Part shown: positions 280 to 12,148 of the stretch, piece by piece
How the letters are laid out: each line of letters starts with the position of its first letter
Numbering within the stretch: position 1 is the first letter of the stretch
DNA from: a virus
Reading direction: 5' to 3' (one strand)
IMG/VR virus record: IMGVR_UViG_3300046820_003928
Coordinates: 64,001-128,000 of that record
Length of the DNA: 64,000 nt
Notes under the pieces: model-generated
Seen by the model: the letters and a program-made list of their open reading frames with translations, nothing else
The model's database searches: none
What the model was told of the DNA's origin: nothing
Position numbers and translations under genes: made by a program

Positions 280-711
280 TTAGCTCACGACTGGAGAGAG
301 CGTATTTCCAATTGCAACGTTGTGCGCAGACATTAGACTCCAGCCTACATTTGTCCAGATAAGTTCAGCGACATCTCCGGCATTCGTAAATACGATCTGT
401 GAAAGCTGATTCCCCTTGGAGACTGAAATTGTTGCATCCCCGCCATCGGAGACCATCATGATACGCTTTAGTTGTCCCACAGCACTTCCGTTTCCAAGCT
501 CGAGAGCAGCAGATCCTGCTGCTACGTCCACGTAGGATGTGTGACACCGCACACTGACTGGGCCAGATGCTGTAACAGTCTCGGGAGCAGCAGCAGGAAT
601 AAACCCAGCAAAACATACAGAGCTTGCAATTCCAGTAGATCCATCAACACTAAAGCCAGATCCCGGGTATTGAACGAGGCCCTCTCCCGGGCTATAAACT
701 ACACTTGGCAT
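280..711 (-). CDS. Hypothetical 143-aa protein, probably virion-associated
   Basis: AGGAG RBS; ATAGTTA motif upstream; G/S/A/V-rich beta-type sequence. Confidence 0.7.
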   Translation of the reverse strand: MPSVVYSPGEGLVQYPGSGFSVDGSTGIASSVCFAGFIPAAAPETVTASGPVSVRCHTSYVDVAAGSAALELGNGSAVGQLKRIMMVSDGGDATISVSKGNQLSQIVFTNAGDVAELIWTNVGWSLMSAHNVAIGNTLSPVVS

Positions 712-807: not shown

Positions 808-2550
808 CTATCCCTTAATGCACATCTGAACGAAAGATCGCAAAGTGATCTCTGAGATCGTTTCTGGCTTGTCCAGAATGTTCCAGATTTCTTTCTTTGA
901 CCTGTCGTCCAAGTCGCTTGGTAGCAGTGAAACAAACTGTTTTTCACTCCTGGATGCGAGTAGATCCCTCATATGAGTTCCGGATATTCTTTCTCCGCTA
1001 GAAAGCTGGACATTTTTTACGAAGACGGGTTCAATTCTCCCAGTGCCGTACTGGACTGGATAGTATTTCTGCAGAGACTCTGGAGAAAATCTGTCCTTAT
1101 CGTCTTCTCCTGCATAGAGTCTAAAAAAGACCTCAGGATCGTTAGCGTATGATCTTATTGCGCCTCTTGTGTCTCCCACAGGTTCTGCGCTGTAGCTAAT
1201 GTCTACATTTTTAGGAAGAATTGGTTCAAGATATCTCTTCCATATTTTTATCATGTCTGAACCAGAGATCTGGACTCCTCCGCTCTCTCTTGATTTTACT
1301 GAAACAATGAGAAATACCTTGTCGTTCTCTCTTGCAGCTTGCTCAATAACTGCCCAGTGTCCCTTGTGAACTGGTTTCACTGCCATCGGGACGACTCCGA
1401 TACTGACAGATCCTCTTCCCTTTCCTAGCCCGACTGCCTGTCGCTTTCCGAGAATATTACGAACAGCAGCAAGAGCGTCTTCTTGAATGTTTATGAGATT
1501 TTTTCTATCATTTTCTACGCCGACTGTAGCAAAGTCTTCCCTTGACATCGAAAAAACAATCTTAGAAAGGAAGGAGATTGCATCACCCATCGGTTCATCG
1601 TCAAGGTCGTCTTCATCAATTTTATTTCTAATGAACTTTGAAAGTTTTTCGTAATAAACATTCTCTTCTTCTGCAGATTTCTCACCAAACTCTTCTTGCT
1701 TCTTGGCACGTCTCGCTTCCTGGTCGTGCTGATCAGCCCGGGACGTCTTGAATAGCTTTCCAGTAAATCTTGTAGTCTGGCCGGTTTCTGGATCAGCAAT
1801 CGGAGAAACCACAACACCCTCAGCATCTCCACCAAGAGAAGAAGTAAAATCAGACAGAACATTAACAAAGGTGTCCAGAACTCCTTTCCAGTTCCCCCTT
1901 GAAATAAAACTGTCTATCTCTTCACTTAGATTCTCAAATCTTGTGCGAATACTGCTATCTTTGCACCCGTCGATAATTGAATCTGTAGAATCAAGTCTTC
2001 CTTCAAATATGACGGGATAAGCTTCGAGGTCAAGTGCACGTCTAAATTCTTCTTTTCTTTGTGTATCGTTTTCAAACTCTGCAAGAGATGTGACCCTGCC
2101 TCCTCTAAGGGAGTATGTTGTAGGTCCAAACCCAGTCAAAAATAGACCGCCTGTCTTTTCATAGCTCCTTGAAATTGTCGGCTTTCTCTGGATGAACTCA
2201 ACAAAAAATTCATAGTCCCTAGGAATTTTTGATGTTTGCGGGTGGACACGTGCAAGATGATCATGGACAAAAGAATACTGGCTTCTTCCTGCTGACTGTC
2301 TCTCTATTTCCTTTTCTCTGCCTAGCCCCTTTAGGCCGGCAAATTCCTCAGGAAAAACAACGTTTTCCTTGTATGAGACTATCCAGTTGTTTAGATAGCT
2401 CTTAGGATCAAAAGGCTGATCATTTCTAATAAGAGTAAGCTTTGTACCATCAAGCTTCTCTTCAACAACCATGTATTGATTGCAAAATTCTTTGGCTGCA
2501 GAATTTGATGTGATAGTCTTGACAATCTTTGGAATTGAAATATCAAGCAT
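808..2550 (-). CDS. ATP-dependent RNA-ligase-like nucleotidyltransferase fused to an HxGH (cytidylyltransferase/NMNAT/PPAT-like) domain
   Basis: N-terminal ligase motifs I EEKLDGT, III FFVEFI, IV AEGVVV, V KLFK; C-terminal KPVHKGH, AGEDD and ISGTHMR. Confidence 0.75.
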   Translation of the reverse strand: MLDISIPKIVKTITSNSAAKEFCNQYMVVEEKLDGTKLTLIRNDQPFDPKSYLNNWIVSYKENVVFPEEFAGLKGLGREKEIERQSAGRSQYSFVHDHLARVHPQTSKIPRDYEFFVEFIQRKPTISRSYEKTGGLFLTGFGPTTYSLRGGRVTSLAEFENDTQRKEEFRRALDLEAYPVIFEGRLDSTDSIIDGCKDSSIRTRFENLSEEIDSFISRGNWKGVLDTFVNVLSDFTSSLGGDAEGVVVSPIADPETGQTTRFTGKLFKTSRADQHDQEARRAKKQEEFGEKSAEEENVYYEKLSKFIRNKIDEDDLDDEPMGDAISFLSKIVFSMSREDFATVGVENDRKNLINIQEDALAAVRNILGKRQAVGLGKGRGSVSIGVVPMAVKPVHKGHWAVIEQAARENDKVFLIVSVKSRESGGVQISGSDMIKIWKRYLEPILPKNVDISYSAEPVGDTRGAIRSYANDPEVFFRLYAGEDDKDRFSPESLQKYYPVQYGTGRIEPVFVKNVQLSSGERISGTHMRDLLASRSEKQFVSLLPSDLDDRSKKEIWNILDKPETISEITLRSFVQMCIKG

Positions 2551-3841
2551 TGAGAATTCCTCTGATTAGCCTGCGTAGCCCTTCTTCAAGTTCAACTGGC
2601 GCAAGCTCTTCATCGTCACTAGCGAGCGAGCCTCTATCCGCCATTTTCAGCTTGAATCTTTTATAATATTTCTCAAGCATTGCCTCAATCTCTTCAGGAG
2701 GTAGCACTTCATTGAGAACATCATCAAATCCAAAAGATCTAATTGCAGCAACAGCAGCTGCCTTTGGCTTGATGTCCTTGGCCTCACTATACGTGCTGAT
2801 CTCTTGTCCGTGATCACCTATAAGCTTATACAAAAAAGATTTAAGAACTTTCCCACAAAACTTCCTGCCCTCGGGATCTGGTAGAAGATTCTCTCGCATA
2901 ATATCGAGTAATCCTAAAAAGGATCTCATCTTCTCAAGATCCTCAGGCTCAGCAGAAAATCCAAAGGCTGCCTCGAAGATTTTTTCAGCATCAGTCACGT
3001 ATTTTTTCTCGCTAGGCTGCGTCACCTTGTAGACAGGCTGCCCCTCGTGTTCATAATCTTGCTTTGTAAGACGCGTTGTCCCTAGACCCTTGTCAACTGC
3101 AAGAGACTGCATATGGAGATCTGGTCCGGGCTCTTTCACAAGTCTTAGCTTTTCTTTTGTCGAAGCTGGGGTAGCAATATGTCCAGAGACACGAGATCTG
3201 ATTGATACGAGAGACTGCAACAGGTATTTGTGAAAAACTCCCTTGACTGACTGCTGAACATCTCGCCAGTTGGATGAGTGACTCAATTTGACCCATGATT
3301 TTAATGCTTTAGAAGTCTTCTCATCCTCTCCCTGCACTGGAATAGGTTGTGGCATAAAGTCAAACTGAATATATGGATTTCCCTTTCCATCCACGTACTG
3401 AAAGATTGTATTTGTGCCCCTATCATTGGCAACATTTTCGTTTGGCTGGATCTTCGTTCCAATAATCTTAAATTTGGATCCGAGCATCGATCCCTTGTTT
3501 TGATCGAGGAACTTTATTAACGAAGATCCGCGCTCTCCTGCTTGCGGGATGTAGATGTCAAGATCGCTAAAGGTCTCTTTATAAAATGAGAAATCCTCGT
3601 CGCTGATGCTAGGGTCAACGATGTGCTCAGTTGAACCGCCAAAGATCAAAAGATCACTGAAGTAGCTCTCAAGTTCGGGCCAAAGCAACTTGCCAAACAT
3701 TGATGAAAATCCATCATTGAGAGCAGACAGCATTTCTTTGATATCTGCAATAAATCGATTTCTAGCGTTCTCTGATTTGAATTTAAGAGAATTTCCAGAG
3801 ATCAGTTTGCCATCAAGATCATAACGATAATTTCCACCCAT
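2543..3841 (-). CDS. DNA polymerase beta-superfamily nucleotidyltransferase
   Basis: IFGGST...FSDLDIYI (hG[GS]...DxD) plus a third acidic residue in YIQFDFM; ATG at 3841 preferred over TTG 3847; overlaps the next gene by 8 nt. Confidence 0.7.
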   Translation of the reverse strand: MGGNYRYDLDGKLISGNSLKFKSENARNRFIADIKEMLSALNDGFSSMFGKLLWPELESYFSDLLIFGGSTEHIVDPSISDEDFSFYKETFSDLDIYIPQAGERGSSLIKFLDQNKGSMLGSKFKIIGTKIQPNENVANDRGTNTIFQYVDGKGNPYIQFDFMPQPIPVQGEDEKTSKALKSWVKLSHSSNWRDVQQSVKGVFHKYLLQSLVSIRSRVSGHIATPASTKEKLRLVKEPGPDLHMQSLAVDKGLGTTRLTKQDYEHEGQPVYKVTQPSEKKYVTDAEKIFEAAFGFSAEPEDLEKMRSFLGLLDIMRENLLPDPEGRKFCGKVLKSFLYKLIGDHGQEISTYSEAKDIKPKAAAVAAIRSFGFDDVLNEVLPPEEIEAMLEKYYKRFKLKMADRGSLASDDEELAPVELEEGLRRLIRGILNA

Positions 3842-3862
3842 ATGCAATCACTCGCTTTTAGC

Positions 3863-3869
3863 TAACTAT
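3863..3869 (-). promoter_or_regulatory. Putative late promoter ATAGTTA for the nucleotidyltransferase pair
   Basis: GATAGTTA overlapping the upstream stop codon, 21 nt before ATG 3841. Confidence 0.45.
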
Positions 3870-5278
3870 CGTGAAATAGTAAAAATCTTTGATCCTGCAC
3901 CCCAGATCCTAAAAACTCGGGATTCTGATGCTATCTGTCGCTCAGATTTTCCATCTCTTGCTCTGAACTTAAATCGATCAAACCTGCTTCTGAGATCTGA
4001 GTACCAGTAGTCAGGACCCGTTGATCCCACTTCGACAAATCCCGACTTTAGATACCCTTCTCCCTTTCCGACTCGACGATCGACGTAAGTCATCAATCCT
4101 TGTTTTTCAGATTCTACTGCATATTTGTAAGCCACACTAGAAATTCTCGACAATCCTCCTGGAATATTCCATCCGGGAGCAATTGCAAATCTTGAGATCT
4201 CAAGCCATTCATTCCACTTTTTCTGTCGTGGCGCCCGCAAAGACATACAAGCAACAATCTCGCCCTTGTGCTCTAGCCCCCACGCGATCTTTGCTACTGC
4301 ATACCCAGACAGGTGGCTTCTTTCAAAAAACTGTCGCTGCGTATGAGCGTCAACTTCTACAATCTTGCACTGTCTTGCTCCAGCGTGATATTTAAAAAGA
4401 CCTAGACGACTAAGGATCATACCTTTGACAATCTCCTGTCGATCTTGCCATTCATCTTGAAAAATCTGTAAGAGTCGAACTCCTGCAGCATCTGCAAGAT
4501 TTGCCTTTATAGAATGTGCTTTAGGGTCACACCCAGTTTTTGCCTCAGAGTGAAAATAGAGACCGTGACACTCGATGCCAAGATTCTTCTCTGGAACAAA
4601 GATGTCAATCTCTTTCGGGGCTATTACAGTTCTGTCTCCCCTTCTTGTCTGTATGCCAAGATCTTTGATCCAGGACTCGACCTCAATCTGCCATTGAGAC
4701 GCTGTGACTGGGTGACAGGTCTCACAGAGGGATCCTCGTTCAAATGCTTGCAAAGTCTTCTGCTGGATATCTCCACAGGTTTTGCATCTGAGTTCAAGAT
4801 ATTGACGCTGTCTGCTAAAATATTCATGCAAAGGAGTTAGAAGCTTAAAATCAGAATCTCTTTCCTCGATTCGTGATGCTATCGTCTCTTTCCCCAGCCG
4901 CTTTGAGATGCTGATGCGTGCCCGAGTGACATCATCGTGCCTGCGACCAAAAAAGGGATTTCCGGATCCAGATACCTTGTTAGAAATTTCTCTAATGCGA
5001 GAGTCAGTCTGCGCCGTTTTTCCCTTGTTCCATGATTCAGCCCTTCCTCCCTTTGCGCCGCCTTCTCTAGCTGCAATTCTGGAACACCCTTGACAGTATT
5101 TCTTAAACTGGAAAGAAGAGTATCTCGTTAAAGATCCACATGAAGCGCAAAGGGGTCGCACATCATGATGATGGAACTTTATTGTATATTCCTCTCCTGA
5201 CATGCCATGAGACTTCTTGATATGGTTTGACAGAGATTTACCATCAGGAAAATCAGCATCGCATCCAAGACACTTCAT
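3866..5278 (-). CDS. Hef-like homing endonuclease (Zn-finger + NUMOD3 + Vsr/DUF559-type nuclease + GNAT/Mom-like C-terminus)
   Basis: C2H2-like N-terminus; SWNKGK and GSGNPFFGRRH (NUMOD3); EIDIFVPEKNLGIECHGLYFHS and IFQDEW; C-terminal LEISRFA, GGLSRI, TYVDRR. Confidence 0.75.
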   Translation of the reverse strand: MKCLGCDADFPDGKSLSNHIKKSHGMSGEEYTIKFHHHDVRPLCASCGSLTRYSSFQFKKYCQGCSRIAAREGGAKGGRAESWNKGKTAQTDSRIREISNKVSGSGNPFFGRRHDDVTRARISISKRLGKETIASRIEERDSDFKLLTPLHEYFSRQRQYLELRCKTCGDIQQKTLQAFERGSLCETCHPVTASQWQIEVESWIKDLGIQTRRGDRTVIAPKEIDIFVPEKNLGIECHGLYFHSEAKTGCDPKAHSIKANLADAAGVRLLQIFQDEWQDRQEIVKGMILSRLGLFKYHAGARQCKIVEVDAHTQRQFFERSHLSGYAVAKIAWGLEHKGEIVACMSLRAPRQKKWNEWLEISRFAIAPGWNIPGGLSRISSVAYKYAVESEKQGLMTYVDRRVGKGEGYLKSGFVEVGSTGPDYWYSDLRSRFDRFKFRARDGKSERQIASESRVFRIWGAGSKIFTISR

Positions 5279-5364: not shown

Positions 5365-6153
5365 TCAAGAGAATCTAACCACCTCAAGATGCGCTTCGTT
5401 CTGGATGCACCATGTCATTGTTGCACGCCACTTTTCACGGTCGGTGTCAGTCTCATGCCCTTTCACCTCGTACAGAGTCTTTCTGTCAAGCGTCAGAAAG
5501 TCTGGGATGTAGACCCGCTCGACACCGTTCGGGTCCACGTACGGGATGCGGATGCCGTGCTGCTTGGTGACAGGAATATTCCGTTCGATGCACTCATCGA
5601 GGAATCGAGTCTCCCAGGAGGAGTGCATGTATTCCTCCCGACCGGTGAATGGGTTGAGCTTCCACTCGGTTCTGTAGGGCGCCTGGGGACCGATCTTGCC
5701 CTGCTCGAGGAGATCACAAGCTCGGGAGGACTGCAGCTTTCTCTTCCCAGCTGATTCGGGCTTCTGCCAGTTCTCGGCGTTTGTTTTTGCTGAGCGCTTT
5801 CGGACTTCAGGGGTGATGTGCGCTCGCATAAGCGAAGCTTGATTTGTTGCCTTGTCTTTATTTTCTCCGTAAAAACGGACTAAGTTTTTACGATTCTTCT
5901 CGCCAATTTTCGCTTTCGATTCATTTGTCAGACGACCCTCAATTCTTGCCGAGTGGCCGTGAATATACCGCAGAAATCTCATTCCCTGAGATCTTGAGAA
6001 GGGTACATCGAGTCCGCAGCCACATTCACACTTTGGGTTGACTCCTCCGTGTATGTAGTTTAGAAGATAACTTTCGTAAGAAGTGTTGTGTGCCCGGAGC
6101 ACGTGTGGTGCAAGACGTTCGAAATCTTTCTGGCAGATTTTGCATGATTCCAT
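5365..6153 (-). CDS. Putative homing endonuclease (Zn-finger + TnsA-like PD-(D/E)XK nuclease)
   Basis: CKIC...HVLRAH and CECGCG; C-terminal SSWE...IPY...YIPDFL...YEVKG; free-standing downstream of the capsid gene. Confidence 0.7.
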   Translation of the reverse strand: MESCKICQKDFERLAPHVLRAHNTSYESYLLNYIHGGVNPKCECGCGLDVPFSRSQGMRFLRYIHGHSARIEGRLTNESKAKIGEKNRKNLVRFYGENKDKATNQASLMRAHITPEVRKRSAKTNAENWQKPESAGKRKLQSSRACDLLEQGKIGPQAPYRTEWKLNPFTGREEYMHSSWETRFLDECIERNIPVTKQHGIRIPYVDPNGVERVYIPDFLTLDRKTLYEVKGHETDTDREKWRATMTWCIQNEAHLEVVRFS

Positions 6154-6189: not shown

Positions 6190-6232
6190 AAAAAAGAAAC
6201 AAAGATGGCGCCCTTTTTAGGGGGCGCCATCT
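6190..6232 (-). terminator. Rho-independent terminator after the major capsid gene
   Basis: 11-bp stem AGATGGCGCCC/GGGCGCCATCT followed by TTGTTTCTTTTT. Confidence 0.85.
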
Positions 6233-6271: not shown

Positions 6272-8179
6272 CTATATAATATTCATGTCAAGACACGTGA
6301 CCGTCCCGTAGAAGTCGGCGCGGACCATCTTCTTGCCGTAACGGGTCATAACGCCCTTGCGAGGAGTGAAATCCTCGGGAGCAAAGATCGTCGGGGTGAC
6401 GATGAGTGGGACGTAAGGAGCGTAGACATAGCCTGTCTCGAGGTAGCTGCCGCCCTTGTAGCCGACAAGAACCTTGTTACGGGGGAAGTAAGGGTCCTTG
6501 TAGACGGTGAAGCGGTTGCTCAGGGTGCCGATGGGGGTGGCGCCGATGGACATCGAGCCGCCGACCTGGCCCTGGCCATCGATCGAGTAGTTGGGCTTGT
6601 AGAGAACCGAAGCCTCGAGGACGGTGGCGACATCGGGTGAAACCACGATGAAGTTGGCCGAGCCGCGAAGGGTCTTGCGGTGGATCTCGTTAGCGACGTC
6701 GATGATGGTCTCGATGAGGGTCTCGTACCACTCGCGGACGGTGCCTGTGAAGGCAGGGCCGGGCTGCGTGGAAGAGGAGCGAGAGATCTCAGCGCCTGTG
6801 GTCTTGTTGACGAAGCGACCTGGTGCACGGCTCCAGTAGTAGTTGGCGCCACGAGCCTCGGTGAGGAGGTCGTTGAGGATCTCACGGTCGATCTCAAGAG
6901 CGATCTGCTCGGAGAGGATCTGGGTGAGCTCGACCTCTGCATCCATCGAGTGGTATGCGTTGAGGTCCTGGGCCAGCTCTGGTGACCAGCGAGCGCGCAG
7001 CTTGCGGGTTGTGGCTGTGACTGGGATGCTCTCGATCTTGATGTCGATCTCGGGGATGACAACCTGGGGCTGTGTAGCAAAGTCAGACTCGAACGAGGGG
7101 ATCGTCAGAGTTGATGCATCAGAGCCGTCAACGTTGAGCGAGTCAGCGATGGCGTATGATGCTGTGAGGTAGACAGCTGAGGTTGCTGCAGCGCCTGGGA
7201 TGTATGTACCAGAGACAACTGTAAGAACTGCTGCGCCGGCGGAGCCAGAGGGAAGCAGGGGGTTGGGGGTGAAGATGCCACCGCTGTAGGTGCCGAGCTG
7301 GTTGAGACGACGAACGTTGAGGATGTTCTGGCCGCCCTGGAAGGTCTCACCAGGAACTGCAAGGCCTGAAGTGCCTCCTGCAGAGTGAAGGGCGATCTCC
7401 TTGACCTGATTGAGGTCAACGTTTGATGGGAAGGAGGCAACGCTGAGGACCAGGAACTGGAACTGACCGGTGGAAGCTAGTGTACCATCAGCTGCATCTG
7501 TCTCGATAAGCGAGGTGATCTGTGGGTCGAACTGGAGGAAGCGACCGTCTGTACCAGTTGCAAAGGCCTTTGCAGCGTTGGTGAGTGTGGTGCCGCCCTG
7601 CCAGGAACCCGAGGCGAGGAGACCAACGCCGGTGGAGCTGGTGTGCACCTTTGTGAAACCGGTGCCGACGAGATCGTACTGGCCGCCGGTTGCGAGTGAA
7701 CCAGAGCGGATTCCCTTTCCGGTTGGGTTGTTGTAGATCGACTGACCACCCTTGTAGGTTGCGCCTGAGGTTGAGACGCCAGTCTGGAGGTTGGCATCGC
7801 CACCGACGTCTGAGCCGTAGGTGTAATCCAGGTAAAACAGGAGACCGGATGGGAGGCTCATTGGCTGGATGGAGACGAGCTCGTTAGCAACGAGACCGCC
7901 GAAGACGCGACGGACAATGGGGAAGGCGATGTTGGTGAAGCCACGGATATCACCGGAGCCAACTGCATTGGCGCCGCCGGTGCCGAGGGAGTTGACCTCG
8001 CGGAGGACCTGGGCTGCCTGGTTCTCCATGAGGCGGGCCATGTTGTCACGCTTGACGCCATCGAGACCGCGGAGGAGACCGGTGCGTGTCCACTTCTCGA
8101 TGAGGCGCTTGCCCTCCTCAGTCACATTACGATCGGAAATGCCCTCAGTGAGCATGTTGAGTGAAAAAGACTTAGACAT
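6272..8179 (-). CDS. gp23: Major capsid protein (T4 gp23-like) with a large variable insertion
   Basis: FPIVRRVF, VSIQPMSLPSGLLFYLD, TRKLRARWSPELAQDLNAYH, YAPYVPL, FTPRKGVMTRY; AGGAG RBS; strongly C/G-ending codons. Confidence 0.97.
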   Translation of the reverse strand: MSKSFSLNMLTEGISDRNVTEEGKRLIEKWTRTGLLRGLDGVKRDNMARLMENQAAQVLREVNSLGTGGANAVGSGDIRGFTNIAFPIVRRVFGGLVANELVSIQPMSLPSGLLFYLDYTYGSDVGGDANLQTGVSTSGATYKGGQSIYNNPTGKGIRSGSLATGGQYDLVGTGFTKVHTSSTGVGLLASGSWQGGTTLTNAAKAFATGTDGRFLQFDPQITSLIETDAADGTLASTGQFQFLVLSVASFPSNVDLNQVKEIALHSAGGTSGLAVPGETFQGGQNILNVRRLNQLGTYSGGIFTPNPLLPSGSAGAAVLTVVSGTYIPGAAATSAVYLTASYAIADSLNVDGSDASTLTIPSFESDFATQPQVVIPEIDIKIESIPVTATTRKLRARWSPELAQDLNAYHSMDAEVELTQILSEQIALEIDREILNDLLTEARGANYYWSRAPGRFVNKTTGAEISRSSSTQPGPAFTGTVREWYETLIETIIDVANEIHRKTLRGSANFIVVSPDVATVLEASVLYKPNYSIDGQGQVGGSMSIGATPIGTLSNRFTVYKDPYFPRNKVLVGYKGGSYLETGYVYAPYVPLIVTPTIFAPEDFTPRKGVMTRYGKKMVRADFYGTVTCLDMNII

Positions 8180-8205: not shown

Positions 8206-9543
8206 TTACTTGAGACCTGCCAGGGTGGCCCAGCGATCGACTTCACCTGCACCGTTCATGCGAGCAGATGATGAGGTAACTGGACGTGATGCCAGACCGG
8301 CTGTGTGCTTGACTGATTCGTTGAGAGACTCATTCTTCGATGTGATCGAGGTGGTGAGGCTCTCAAAGAGCAACTTGGCTTCGCGAAGATTCGATGCGCC
8401 GTCAAGAGCCTCGATGATTGCGCGACGTTGATTAGGTGCAACGTCCTTGTTCTGGAGGATCTTGTTTACATAAAGAAGCTTGGCGTTGAACAAGTTTAGA
8501 TCGGAAAGTTGCTCACGAAGCGTTTCAATTGCGCCTCTGTAATCATTGAGCTGATTCTTGAGGGCGTGATTTTCACGCGCTCCTTCCTTGATCTTCTTCT
8601 TGGCGAGATCTAGCTCGTTCATGTTGACGTCCATTGCGTCACCCTCGAGCGTGCCACCGCCAAAGGCTGCTGCTGCAACCTTGTGCGATTTTTCAGATGA
8701 ACCCTTTTTACGAGACTTAGCCTCGCGGAGCCTTGCAAGCTCACGACGAAGCATGTTCTCATCAATCTCATAGACCATCTCAGCGAGAGCCTCCTCGTCG
8801 CCTTCTTCAGCGCCGGCCTCAGCTGCTGGCTCGACGGGAGCAGCCTCAGCTTCCTCCTCGCCAACCTCAACCTCTTCCTCCTCGCCTTCGGTCTCTTCGA
8901 ATTCAATTCCCATAAGACCGAGCTTGTCAAATGCCTCTTTCTCTTCGGCAGTTCCAACAAGCTTGAGCACGGCTTCTTCAAGGTCATCCTCGTCGCCGTG
9001 CATCATTTCATCGAGCTCATAGAGCTCCTCATCCATCACTTTGTTCATTTTAGCTCCTTTAGCCTTTGATTCAGTCTCAGAGACAACGGATTTCTTGAGT
9101 TCCTCAAGGTCTACCTCGTAGGATCCGCTTGCCTCAACAGTTTCGGTCTCCTCGGACTCACCCTCTTTGATGAGTGCCAGGAGCCTTCCCTGCTCCTCTT
9201 CTGAAAGCGAGTCAAAGGCTTCAGAAAGAGCTGCAAGATCATCATTCTTTCCGGCGGAGCTTCTTTGTGATCCATTCATTAGATCTACAAGAGAGCGAAG
9301 GGCAGTCTCATCAAGTGCCACTTCTTCATCGGCGCCTTCCGCCTTTCCGTCTTCTTCGGAGATCGCTGTTGCAAGAAAGTCTGCGTCTTCGTTGACTGGA
9401 GTCTCTCCTACAAGCTGACTTTCAATAAACTCTCTAATCTTAGGAGTAACCGCCTCGATGATGGCGTTCTTTGCATTGAGCTCTGCTACTTCTCGAAGCT
9501 GCTTAGCGTCAGCAATCGCCTCTTCGAACAGTGATCTCGACAT
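8206..9543 (-). CDS. Prohead core/scaffolding protein (gp22-like)
   Basis: Directly upstream of the capsid gene; very acidic, coiled-coil, many [IL]xE sites; C-terminal RWATLAGLK. Confidence 0.8.
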   Translation of the reverse strand: MSRSLFEEAIADAKQLREVAELNAKNAIIEAVTPKIREFIESQLVGETPVNEDADFLATAISEEDGKAEGADEEVALDETALRSLVDLMNGSQRSSAGKNDDLAALSEAFDSLSEEEQGRLLALIKEGESEETETVEASGSYEVDLEELKKSVVSETESKAKGAKMNKVMDEELYELDEMMHGDEDDLEEAVLKLVGTAEEKEAFDKLGLMGIEFEETEGEEEEVEVGEEEAEAAPVEPAAEAGAEEGDEEALAEMVYEIDENMLRRELARLREAKSRKKGSSEKSHKVAAAAFGGGTLEGDAMDVNMNELDLAKKKIKEGARENHALKNQLNDYRGAIETLREQLSDLNLFNAKLLYVNKILQNKDVAPNQRRAIIEALDGASNLREAKLLFESLTTSITSKNESLNESVKHTAGLASRPVTSSSARMNGAGEVDRWATLAGLK

Positions 9544-9593: not shown

Positions 9594-10139
9594 TTATTCT
9601 TGACTAAGTCTTGCAATTTTTAGCTTTTTTCTTGTTCTTTCTCGAAGATCGGGATTAACAGCGTCTACAAATCGAAAGGGAGCCTGATCTGTCACAGGGT
9701 TTGCTTTGACATCTCCCATTGACCACCCGCGTGGATCGACATCGACGACGCCTGGTGCAACAGTAAAAGAGGGATTTGAAGATGTCCCACCAAGAGCAGG
9801 TCCGTCAAATTTTCTCATTGGAAAAGGAACGATTCCAGAAAGTGTAGTTCTAGGAGTCGCTGAGTTCTCTGCGAGATCTAATCGATTCTTTGCCATTGTG
9901 AATCGATCAGTTCTTGAGAACGGTTCAGGTCTTTTTGCAAGGTTGCCATAGCTAACTTTTTTATTTATGAGGGCTCTCAGATTTAGTCCAGAATCACTAT
10001 CATCATACGCTTCTTCTTCATCACTGTTTTCTGTATTGTAGGGAAATTTATCACCAGATTTCTCTGGATTTTGAAATCCCTTCCTTCCAGTAAACCCATA
10101 GCCAGCGCCAGTCCTTTGATCGTGGACAAATTTTGGCAT
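9594..10139 (-). CDS. Hypothetical head-module protein
   Basis: 181-aa ORF, TGATG-coupled to the upstream gene. Confidence 0.65.
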   Translation of the reverse strand: MPKFVHDQRTGAGYGFTGRKGFQNPEKSGDKFPYNTENSDEEEAYDDSDSGLNLRALINKKVSYGNLAKRPEPFSRTDRFTMAKNRLDLAENSATPRTTLSGIVPFPMRKFDGPALGGTSSNPSFTVAPGVVDVDPRGWSMGDVKANPVTDQAPFRFVDAVNPDLRERTRKKLKIARLSQE

Positions 10140-10669
10140 CAGGAACGTCCGTCAGATCCTAGATAAGACCTTCCTGAGATGTATGATCCAATTGTCTGCC
10201 CTGCAACACCAGGAGTCGTCTCTGATGGTGATACTGCGCCTAGACCAAATCCATATTCATTTCCCTTTTCTGGAAGCTGTCCAACATACTCAGGAATATC
10301 GTACGGAGACGTGCTACCCGGACCAGGAGATGCTGGGTTGGGAACATATGGAGATGCTGGGAGGCCCTCGCCTCCGACAGGAACTGTTTCAAGGTCTGGC
10401 ACGCCAGAGAAATTTAGATCGAATGACCCAAAGGCATATCCGCCATCATTTACGACGCCAGATGTGACACCGATGTTTGGTATGCTATCCCCGGGACCGC
10501 CATTCCCATTCAGCGCAGCAATTGCTGCATTCTTTACAGCCTCTTCGCTGTATGTCGTTCCCACAGGAGTTGCAAACATCGCCGAAAGATTGACATCGTT
10601 CCGATGACCAAGACCACCCTCTCCGGGAACGCCTTGCGGCACAACAGTCGAATACTTTACAGATGACAT
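10139..10669 (-). CDS. Hypothetical G/P-rich head-module protein
   Basis: AGGAG RBS 6 nt before ATG 10669 (track starts at TTG 10675). Confidence 0.7.
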   Translation of the reverse strand: MSSVKYSTVVPQGVPGEGGLGHRNDVNLSAMFATPVGTTYSEEAVKNAAIAALNGNGGPGDSIPNIGVTSGVVNDGGYAFGSFDLNFSGVPDLETVPVGGEGLPASPYVPNPASPGPGSTSPYDIPEYVGQLPEKGNEYGFGLGAVSPSETTPGVAGQTIGSYISGRSYLGSDGRS

Positions 10670-10702
10670 TTGCAACTCCTGTGTAACAGTTTTTAAGGTT
10701 GA

Positions 10703-10987
10703 TTAATCAAGATCGTTGACAATCTGACGGCGGAGAGCAAGACGACGCTCCTGGATCTTGCGAAGCTGGTCGCGAAGCTCGACTTCCTGCTCCTTGAGCA
10801 TCTTGAGGGTCTGAAGCTTCTTGCCGGGAGTCTGCTTCACTGTGTGTGCAGGCTTGCCTGGCCACTCCTCGTCCATCTCAAGAGCAAGATCCTTCTTTGC
10901 CTGCTTTGTCTTCTTGTCATTCATCATCTTCGCCTTCTCCTCGAGAACGAGCTTGCGAAGCATATCGGGTGTAAGCTTGGTTGCCAT
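10703..10987 (-). CDS. Small coiled-coil head protein, probable internal/core protein
   Basis: AAGGAG RBS, late motif upstream, high GC3, N-terminal KLTPDMLRKLVLEE. Confidence 0.7.
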   Translation of the reverse strand: MATKLTPDMLRKLVLEEKAKMMNDKKTKQAKKDLALEMDEEWPGKPAHTVKQTPGKKLQTLKMLKEQEVELRDQLRKIQERRLALRRQIVNDLD

Positions 10988-11014
10988 TTTAAAACTCCTT
11001 AGGGTTTCAAAGAT

Positions 11015-11028
11015 TAAATATCACAGAA
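11015..11028 (-). promoter_or_regulatory. Putative late promoter TTCTGTGATATTTA
   Basis: 13/14 identical to 20661-20674; shares TGTGATATTTA with 26543-26553. Confidence 0.55.
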
Positions 11029-11029
11029 C

Positions 11030-11539
11030 CTACGATCTTGTGGGAACCTTTTCAGCAAATGCCAGCGCAGCCCACATTCCTGCACTTTCTCCAAAAATGT
11101 CTGTCGGATCGCTTTTTAGCATTGCTCTAGATGCGGCATCTCCTGCAGATTCAATCATCTGTTCGTGACTAACCCGACCAGAAGAAGATTCAGACATGCT
11201 CATGTAGGCACCATTTCTTGCAGTGTCTGCAAAGATGTCAGCCATTATAGGATCAGATGTGATAGAGCTGGCAAGAGCTGCTGTTCTTTGATTTACAGAT
11301 GTAGTGCCTTCCCGTATTTCTTCCCTCTTTGGAAGAAAGCTAATCTTATCTGCAATTGATTGTCTTGGATTCTGAGGTTGTTTGGTGCCTTGCGAGGTGC
11401 TCATTCCGCGAACCGGAGCAGCCGTGCGCATCTGTCGTGACTCATTTATAGTCTGCTGAGTCTCTGAGAGACCCTCTGCGAGGATCTCAACGAGGCATTC
11501 TTTGACCAGGTTTTTCAGGTCATTTCTTGTCATCTTCAT
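11030..11539 (-). CDS. Hypothetical head protein, probable internal/core protein
   Basis: Follows the prohead protease; N-terminal MKMTRNDLKNLVKECLVEILAE amphipathic helix. Confidence 0.7.
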   Translation of the reverse strand: MKMTRNDLKNLVKECLVEILAEGLSETQQTINESRQMRTAAPVRGMSTSQGTKQPQNPRQSIADKISFLPKREEIREGTTSVNQRTAALASSITSDPIMADIFADTARNGAYMSMSESSSGRVSHEQMIESAGDAASRAMLKSDPTDIFGESAGMWAALAFAEKVPTRS

Positions 11540-11542
11540 TTA

Positions 11543-12148
11543 TCACTTCCAGGATTTGATCTCATTGAAGATTCTATTGATGCGATCAGATCTATTAAAG
11601 GTTGCACGAAGATCGACAGGATTTATTGATCTTGACTCACGAAGCATAAAGGCACCGGGTGTGCTCGGCTCAGAAACAATATCAAAACAGATCAGCTGGA
11701 AATCCTCTTGTACAACTGTGTGTCCGTCCTGCTGACGAGTAGATCCTACGCCTCTTGAGGAAATCCCAAGTGTAACTCCTGATTCGATGAGACTCTGCAA
11801 GATCTTTCCGCTAGGAGTATCTAGCAGCTCAACAGATCCATAAACAGTATCTCCCTCCATCCGGGCTTCTCTAACGATATGAGAGGCGTTCTTGAGTTCA
11901 ACAACAGAGGTGTCTGGGTGATCACACTCACCAAGCGCGCGATTTTCTCGGATGAACTTCTGGTAGTTGATTATCTCTCTTTCCAGTATGGCTCGTGGGT
12001 AGATTCTACCATTTTGATTGAGTGTATCAGATCTCTGGATTATGCCCTTAAGCATGATCTTGCCCCCGTTAAGGGCTCGAGACTCCTTGATGAGGTCAGG
12101 AGTAAGTGAGAGGGGTGTCCACTCAGTAAGCAGAGAAAGTGCGCTCAT
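11543..12148 (-). CDS. gp21: Prohead core protease (T4 gp21-like)
   Basis: NQNGRIYP, ALGECDHP, LGISSRGVGS, FDIVSEPSTPGA. Confidence 0.95.
   Translation of the reverse strand: MSALSLLTEWTPLSLTPDLIKESRALNGGKIMLKGIIQRSDTLNQNGRIYPRAILEREIINYQKFIRENRALGECDHPDTSVVELKNASHIVREARMEGDTVYGSVELLDTPSGKILQSLIESGVTLGISSRGVGSTRQQDGHTVVQEDFQLICFDIVSEPSTPGAFMLRESRSINPVDLRATFNRSDRINRIFNEIKSWK

Follow-up and report, generated by a model that had tools for sequence, protein, structure and literature searches.

A linked Pol-beta-like and ligase–HxGH gene pair beside the head genes of a marine T4-like phage, possibly a packaged repair module for nucleic-acid ends

We analysed a 64,000-nucleotide stretch (the window) comprising bases 64001–128000 of a 140,420-base viral contig (IMG/VR record IMGVR_UViG_3300046820_003928) from an uncultured marine T4-like phage, the contig representing ~39% of the genome according to CheckV. 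Two overlapping genes, here called A and B, lie in its head gene block and encode three unrelated nucleotidyltransferase folds, a Pol-beta-like domain in A and a covalent ligase joined to an HxGH Rossmann domain in B, a reading that the initial annotation had offered and that structural models and per-domain fold searches bear out. Both proteins end in the same type of short peptide, and homologues of both were reported in particles of a cultured relative. Our favoured explanation, which we hold to be about evenly balanced between right and wrong, is that A and B are one conserved repair machine for broken nucleic-acid ends that is tagged for the head, packaged and injected. The two genes overlap as first annotated:

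2543–3841, minus strand: gene A, 432 residues from its ATG in the list of open reading frames (ORFs), identical to the 432-residue cluster P0001 (phrog_19290); an alternative TTG start at 3847 would add two residues.
808–2550, minus strand: gene B, an ORF of 580 residues with 94 homologues (phrog_27149).
2543–2550, minus strand: 8-nucleotide overlap of the A stop and the B start, suggestive of translational coupling.

Judged from its model, protein A is a divergent Pol-beta-superfamily nucleotidyltransferase, with a PolX-like palm and thumb and a helical C-terminal domain. The AlphaFold2 (AF2) model reached a predicted local distance difference test score (pLDDT) of 88 and a predicted template modelling score (pTM) of 0.86, and its Foldseek matches in the Protein Data Bank (PDB) were weak and all to Pol-beta-superfamily enzymes. 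The best of these, covering the palm and thumb, were Pol mu, Pol beta, African swine fever virus (ASFV) Pol X, TdT and Pol lambda, while the weak matches included MenT-type toxins, CD-NTases and protein-AMPylating enzymes. Across 29 aligned homologues, D93, D95 and D161 are invariant and G69 and S70 nearly so, and a second invariant cluster comprises S189, S190, D194, K200, H204, K205, Y206 and R257. The protein has the hG[GS] turn, the DxD pair and the third carboxylate on the neighbouring strand by which the superfamily is recognized. No Pfam or NCBIfam family matched A, the PF10127 (RlaP) profile gave no match at E values up to 0.1, and a sequence profile search of the PDB returned nothing meaningful; an identity as CD-NTase or CCA-adding enzyme, raised in the initial annotation, found no support in any family match. 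The family is large, with 718 cluster representatives at 50% identity.

Protein B (model pLDDT 90) divides into three parts:

1681–2550, minus strand: ligase domain (B residues 1–290), a covalent nucleotidyltransferase with motif I (KxDG, K32), motif IV (EG, 244–245) and motif V (K268), without an oligonucleotide/oligosaccharide-binding (OB) domain.
1426–1680, minus strand: helical linker (B residues 291–375), from the secondary structure of the model.
871–1425, minus strand: HxGH (HIGH-type) Rossmann nucleotidyltransferase domain (B residues 376–560), with HxGH at 395–398 and ISGTxMR at 522–528.

By fold, residues 1–290 are closest to RNA ligases (Foldseek: T4 Rnl2, E = 1e-7; fungal Trl1 ligase, 9e-7), with no DNA ligase among the best 50 structural matches, and K32, D34, G35, E114, E118, E244, G245 and K268 are invariant in 36 aligned homologues. 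Of the features that define Rnl2, B shows the motifs and the adenylyltransferase fold without an OB domain; it lacks the Rnl2 C-terminal domain, and its score against Pfam PF09414 (21 bits) falls under the 27-bit cut-off. The second catalytic domain resembles NadD, NMNAT and PPAT in fold (E = 2e-6 and weaker), and the same homologues keep H398 without exception and S523 and R528 nearly so. Its motifs and Rossmann fold place it in the HIGH nucleotidylyltransferase superfamily, and here the assignment stops: Pfam, PHROG and NCBIfam matches are weak, under curated cut-offs and limited to the first 45 residues. One of the PHROG matches, phrog_3462, is annotated as NMNAT, but the domain is far from the NMNAT equivalog level (TIGR01526, 19 bits versus 341; TIGR01527, 12.7 versus 181), and models of PPAT and citrate-lyase ligase score it about as well as NMNAT models do. 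Catalytic residues are thus kept in both the A and the B family, so that a lack of conservation, which would have told against the initial proposal, was not seen. A role for B as the phage's replicative DNA ligase was considered and rejected, three of five relatives that carry the module also encoding a PF01068 ligase.

Gene fusions indicate that the A, ligase and HxGH domains function as a unit. Scanning IMG/VR with a profile revealed 149 contigs with a relative of A, and in 29 of the 80 loci fetched from these B lies immediately downstream on the same strand, at A identities down to 25%. At least 25 further loci carry the A domain as the N-terminal part of giant ORFs of 900–2100 residues, in which a conserved KxDG ligase motif follows ~40 residues past A and, in most cases, an HxGH domain lies near residue 730–900. 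The ligase profile had no direct hidden Markov model match to the middle of these fusions, and hhalign aligned their middle domain with the ligase weakly and locally, over motifs IV–V only (E = 7e-4, probability 27%), so it is mainly the conserved KxDG motif that carries the ligase call in the fusions. The order is HxGH–A in one locus, and some giants add an HD_4 phosphohydrolase domain, or an Amidoligase_2 domain together with a second NTP_transf_2 domain; a weak GNAT match was also seen. Among cultured phages, tblastn found A and B in exactly the same 21 records, from the Campylobacter CP220 group and the Vibrio Va1 group. Further cultured carriers are the Stenotrophomonas phages of the Moby/Mendera group and Xanthomonas phage BUDD. 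The pair is kept together, or fused, in many phages. A predicted complex of A (residues 16–432) with B (1–580), run without controls, scored 0.04 against a mark of 0.32.

The giant ORFs (L030, L044, L053, L069, L075 and others) run on into mostly unknown domains, and many of them end in an acidic stretch followed by an amphipathic helix of a different sequence type.

The C-terminal tails of A and B, noted in the initial annotation, are real and conserved and are the same peptide in two unrelated families:

2546–2590, minus strand: C-terminal tag of A, L-E-E (residues 418–420) and then a 12-residue Arg-striped amphipathic helix (421–432).
811–858, minus strand: C-terminal tag of B, I-S-E (565–567) and then an amphipathic helix (568–580), a degenerate copy of the family motif.

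The general form is an acidic residue, two further residues and a helix h-R-x-h-h-R-x-x-h, with near identity between some A and B tails. Only A and B end in this way among the 719 ORFs of the contig, and a matrix derived solely from relatives gives the tail of A 30 bits. Its low pLDDT suggests that the A tail is not docked on its own domain; the tail helix of B has a pLDDT of 60–81. The T4 protease gp21, which cleaves behind (L/I)-x-E, strips internal proteins of their targeting leader. A [LIVM]-x-E site ending 0–2 residues ahead of the helix is present in 81% of the tails in family A and 44% of those in family B, versus ~5% elsewhere in the proteins. Judged by eye, the presence or absence of the tail is concordant between A and B of one genome in 26 of 27 distinct pairs.

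Other members of both families carry a tag at the opposite end. An N-terminal leader of 7–30 residues, ending in h-x-E/D exactly before the conserved GGN, occurs in 46 of 162 stand-alone A-family representatives, only two of which also have the tail (Fisher p = 0.015). Ten of 94 B relatives have a leader before the conserved start, none of them with a tail (p = 0.005). Many leaders resemble those of T4 ipII and ipIII, as read from the T4 record, and two carry the tail helix itself, at a score reached by 0.14% of shuffled leaders. The window's own proteins have no N-terminal leader: A begins with its conserved GGN and B with its conserved LDISI. We also considered the tail as a general tag on the N-termini of head proteins and rejected it: against a matrix of relatives' tails, the N-terminus of the 11030–11539 gene ranked third at 10.4 bits, and maxima in shuffled proteomes reach 13.4.

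Evidence from virions comes from the Campylobacter phage IBB_35, in whose purified particles 38 proteins were identified by tandem mass spectrometry with electrospray ionization (ESI-MS/MS; Table S2 of Carvalho et al. 2012, PMC3322345). These include the product of gene 1-56 (44.4 kDa, 17% coverage) and those of genes 2-25 (2.9% coverage) and 2-24 (23.7%) (PMC3322345). Gene 1-56 (39251–40417 of contig 1) is the homologue of A, with an N-terminal leader that ends L-E before GGN. Genes 2-25 and 2-24 together make up one homologue of B, split at a run of seven A (HM246721.1; ~4060–4090 of locus L083), where the frame change probably reflects either an error of 454 sequencing or a genuine slippery site.

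The position of the pair points in the same direction. The features between and around the head genes are:

6272–8179, minus strand: gp23 major capsid protein, 635 residues (Pfam Gp23, E = 4.7e-79), at the head of a conserved gp23–A–B block.
6203–6232, minus strand: strong terminator-like hairpin directly after gp23, with 11 pairs (8 of them G-C) and then a T-run.
5365–6153, minus strand: homing-endonuclease-like gene (TnsA-like, phrog_15427).
3866–5278, minus strand: homing-endonuclease-like gene (NUMOD3, phrog_3339).
3863–3869, minus strand: ATAGTTA heptamer before A, overlapping the stop codon of the 3866–5278 gene; not enriched.
8206–9543: gp22-like scaffold.
11543–12148: gp21-like prohead protease.

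The order gp21–gp22–gp23–terminator–A–B recurs in at least 14 loci (gp23 identity 66–90%), with equivalent hairpins after gp23 in relatives L004 and L009. Each endonuclease gene is independently present or absent among those relatives, which marks both as insertions, and where they are missing A starts 80–90 nucleotides past gp23, behind a hairpin similar to that of the window. The claim that the pair lies just downstream of the capsid gene therefore holds for relatives without insertions, whereas in the window two endonuclease genes and a hairpin intervene. The proposal that ATAGTTA marks structural genes found no support, with 6 copies in the window versus 6.1 expected and only 2 of them intergenic, and a T4-late-like ATAAATA was likewise rejected as a promoter motif (7 copies versus 10 expected, not enriched). 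In T4, rnlB lies beside genes 23 and 24, with segD between and on the opposite strand, and because this RNA ligase gene also adjoins head genes, position alone proves little. The inserted endonuclease genes recall segD beside T4 gene 23.

Under the favoured explanation, A would add missing nucleotides back at a 3'-OH end, the N-terminal Rnl2/Trl1-like domain of B would act as an ATP-dependent ligase that seals the break through lysyl-AMP at K32, and a third nucleotidyl transfer, with a phosphate as acceptor, would fall to the HxGH domain. A terminal peptide, here the C-terminal h-x-E with its Arg-striped helix, would take each protein into the prohead core, a part played in T4 internal proteins by an N-terminal targeting sequence; cleavage by the prohead protease behind the Glu would follow, and injection would bring the enzymes into the host along with the DNA. 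The window has a gp21 homologue, and its gp23 has L-x-E sites at the expected place in an alignment to T4 gp23. For head packaging as a whole, which the initial annotation had proposed, the IBB_35 virion homologues, the leaders, the mutual exclusion of leader and tail and the position in the head block all lend real but indirect support; the window's own A and B are candidate cargo, and their tails would be putative cutting sites.

As substrate we lean modestly towards RNA (tRNA or rRNA cut by host nucleases) over DNA, because the ligase is of the RNA-ligase type without an OB domain and has T4 Rnl2 and Trl1 as its best matches, because a separate PF01068 DNA ligase is present in three of five module-carrying relatives, because in Vibrio phage Va1 the genes have a CCA-adding enzyme and an Rnl1-like gene in their vicinity and because one fused form has an HD_4 domain. 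A role on DNA is somewhat less likely, with the PolX-like matches of A and delivery together with DNA in its favour.

Several observations weigh against a packaged repair machine. The virion data come from a single gel-based study of a relative at ~28–30% identity, whose list includes a QueC-like enzyme, and some of its entries may be contaminants. The structural matches of A are middling (Z ≤ 7.4), with DNA polymerases X favoured no less than RNA-specific enzymes. Next to the pair we saw neither a kinase nor a phosphoesterase that could heal ends, in a contig that covers ~39% of the genome. The tail of B in the window is degenerate, scoring below 10 bits against the family matrix, 93 of the 162 A representatives have neither tag and the Vibrio phage copies lack any. 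We know of no experimental precedent in T4 for a targeting peptide at the C-terminus. Finally, a strong terminator stands between gp23 and the pair, for which no late promoter was identified.

The alternative that survives best, though we find it doubtful, keeps the three-domain repair machine but leaves it unpackaged in the cytoplasm late in infection, with the terminal helix serving to bind a partner shared by both, to hold A and B together or to anchor them at the membrane as the amphipathic helices of MinD or FtsA do. Arg-striped amphipathic helices often bind membranes or partners, and the confinement of the tail to A and B in the contig, with none on other candidate head cargo, sits well with such a role, as does the concordance of the tails within genomes, which fits a mutual or common-partner function. 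The terminator after gp23 counts on the same side, and so does T4 rnlB, which adjoins head genes and is, to our knowledge, not a virion protein. Set against this, the fused giants would need no glue between A and B and yet end in an acidic stretch and an amphipathic helix, the leaders have a protease-type site as their last residues, right at the conserved start, and exclude tails, and homologues were detected in IBB_35 virions.

Somewhat less probable again, in our view, is a DNA repair kit for the phage genome, in which A would be a mini Pol X that fills gaps and B would seal nicks, together mending nicks, gaps or abasic-site breaks in the injected DNA, after the pattern of ASFV Pol X and its ligase or of LigD. 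A has Pol mu, Pol beta, ASFV Pol X, TdT and Pol lambda as its best structural matches, and enzymes delivered with DNA would presumably meet DNA first. The ligase argues otherwise, having no OB domain and no DNA ligase among its closest structural matches; relatives keep their separate PF01068 DNA ligase, and no apurinic/apyrimidinic (AP) endonuclease or lyase domain was seen.

It is very improbable that the proteins are instead effectors, with A nucleotidylating host proteins or RNAs or making a signalling nucleotide and the HxGH domain rebuilding NAD+ against an NAD-depleting defence: toxins, CD-NTases and AMPylating enzymes do share the Pol-beta fold and appear among the weak matches of A, the HxGH domain comes closest in fold to NadD and NMNAT and has the NMNAT-annotated phrog_3462 among its matches, and A-like domains occur in giant multi-domain proteins, one with a ParB domain, that can be likened to polyvalent proteins (PMC5512222), but A is constantly paired with a ligase whose lysine is intact, which points to nucleic-acid ends, no family match linked A to CD-NTases or MenT, the surroundings of the pair showed no NadV- or Nampt-type partner, and the HxGH domain scores 19 bits against an NMNAT equivalog cut-off of 341 and does no better there than with PPAT and citrate-lyase ligase models.

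Among described systems, the closest logic to a packaged A–B repair machine appears to be that of RlaP with RNA ligases. RlaP (PF10127), an enzyme of the Pol-beta type, extends damaged RNA 3' ends by one or two nucleotides ahead of sealing (PMC12776372), and it accompanies RNA ligases of the Rnl or RtcB kind in the RNA repair operons of bacteria and phages, according to the account of Burroughs and Aravind 2016 as relayed in PMC12776372 and PMC7824862. Like RlaP, A is a Pol-beta-superfamily nucleotidyltransferase encoded beside an RNA ligase, the adjacency that characterizes RlaP-type enzymes. It differs in having no PF10127 match, about twice the size of a minimal nucleotidyltransferase and a conserved helical domain of its own; its ligase partner carries an extra HxGH domain, and both A and B carry head-type tags.

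T4 Rnl2 (rnlB, gp24.1; PF09414) is the best structural match of the B ligase domain, which has motifs I, IV and V in common with it, and its gene likewise adjoins genes 23 and 24 of the head, close to a homing endonuclease. In B, the Rnl2 C-terminal domain is replaced by the helical linker and the HxGH domain, and the Pfam score stays below the cut-off; rnlB itself lies on the strand opposite genes 23 and 24 and has no known tag. In trypanosome RNA editing, fill-in by a TUTase is followed by sealing with an Rnl2-type ligase, the same logic as the pairing of A with B. As for targeting, many A and B relatives resemble T4 IPI–III in having a 7–30-residue leader that ends in h-x-E/D at the conserved start, and the window has both a gp21 homologue (11543–12148) and a gp23 with L-x-E sites; the putative tag in the window differs in being C-terminal and of other sequence, an Arg-striped helix after a Glu. 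ASFV Pol X with the ASFV DNA ligase is a more distant comparison, with 12% identity to A and a ligase partner in B that is of the RNA-ligase type without an OB domain. In bacterial LigD, which combines polymerase, phosphoesterase and ligase, the polymerase has another fold than A. The HxGH domain of B shares the fold, the HxGH motif and the ISxTxxR motif with NadD, NMNAT and PPAT; unlike these it lies far under every equivalog cut-off and has a ligase as its fusion partner in place of a Nudix or kinase domain, for which the phage NMNAT fusions of NAD+ salvage offer a comparison (PMC7824862).

We also put forward, tentatively, a bolder version of the packaged repair machine. A portable peptide, working at either end of its cargo, would load the three-enzyme machine into the head, where the protease would remove it; after injection the enzymes would mend RNA or DNA breaks before the phage expresses its own genes, and the HxGH domain would perform a previously undescribed adenylylation of end phosphates or supply a cofactor for the ligase. 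The literature searched, which did not cover Burroughs and Aravind 2016, yielded no description of the three-domain module or of the C-terminal tag.

Other features of the neighbourhood are recorded here. The window contains no tRNA genes. A 143-residue ORF without a family (280–711, minus strand) comes after B, with a copy of ATAGTTA 60 nucleotides upstream of its start. At 635 residues versus 521 in T4, gp23 includes a stretch (residues ~125–375) that has no counterpart in the T4 alignment and that differs from the rest of the window in its G+C fraction of 0.57 and positive GC skew; this stretch probably forms an insertion domain at the surface of the capsid. Four extra genes of ~181, 178, 95 and 169 residues (9594–11539, minus strand) separate the gp21-like protease from the gp22-like scaffold and encode candidate internal head proteins. 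The N-terminus of the 169-residue protein has an amphipathic helix followed by L-x-E sites.

If the favoured explanation is right, repair enzymes would be an added class of injected cargo in T4-like phages, alongside Alt, the internal proteins and gp2, and the tail would be a capsid-targeting peptide that works at the C-terminus and could serve for loading heads with foreign proteins. The fusion of a ligase with an HxGH domain may show a new way to prepare or seal nucleic-acid ends. The module is common (718 A representatives, 149 viral contigs), and one biochemical study would annotate hundreds of genes.

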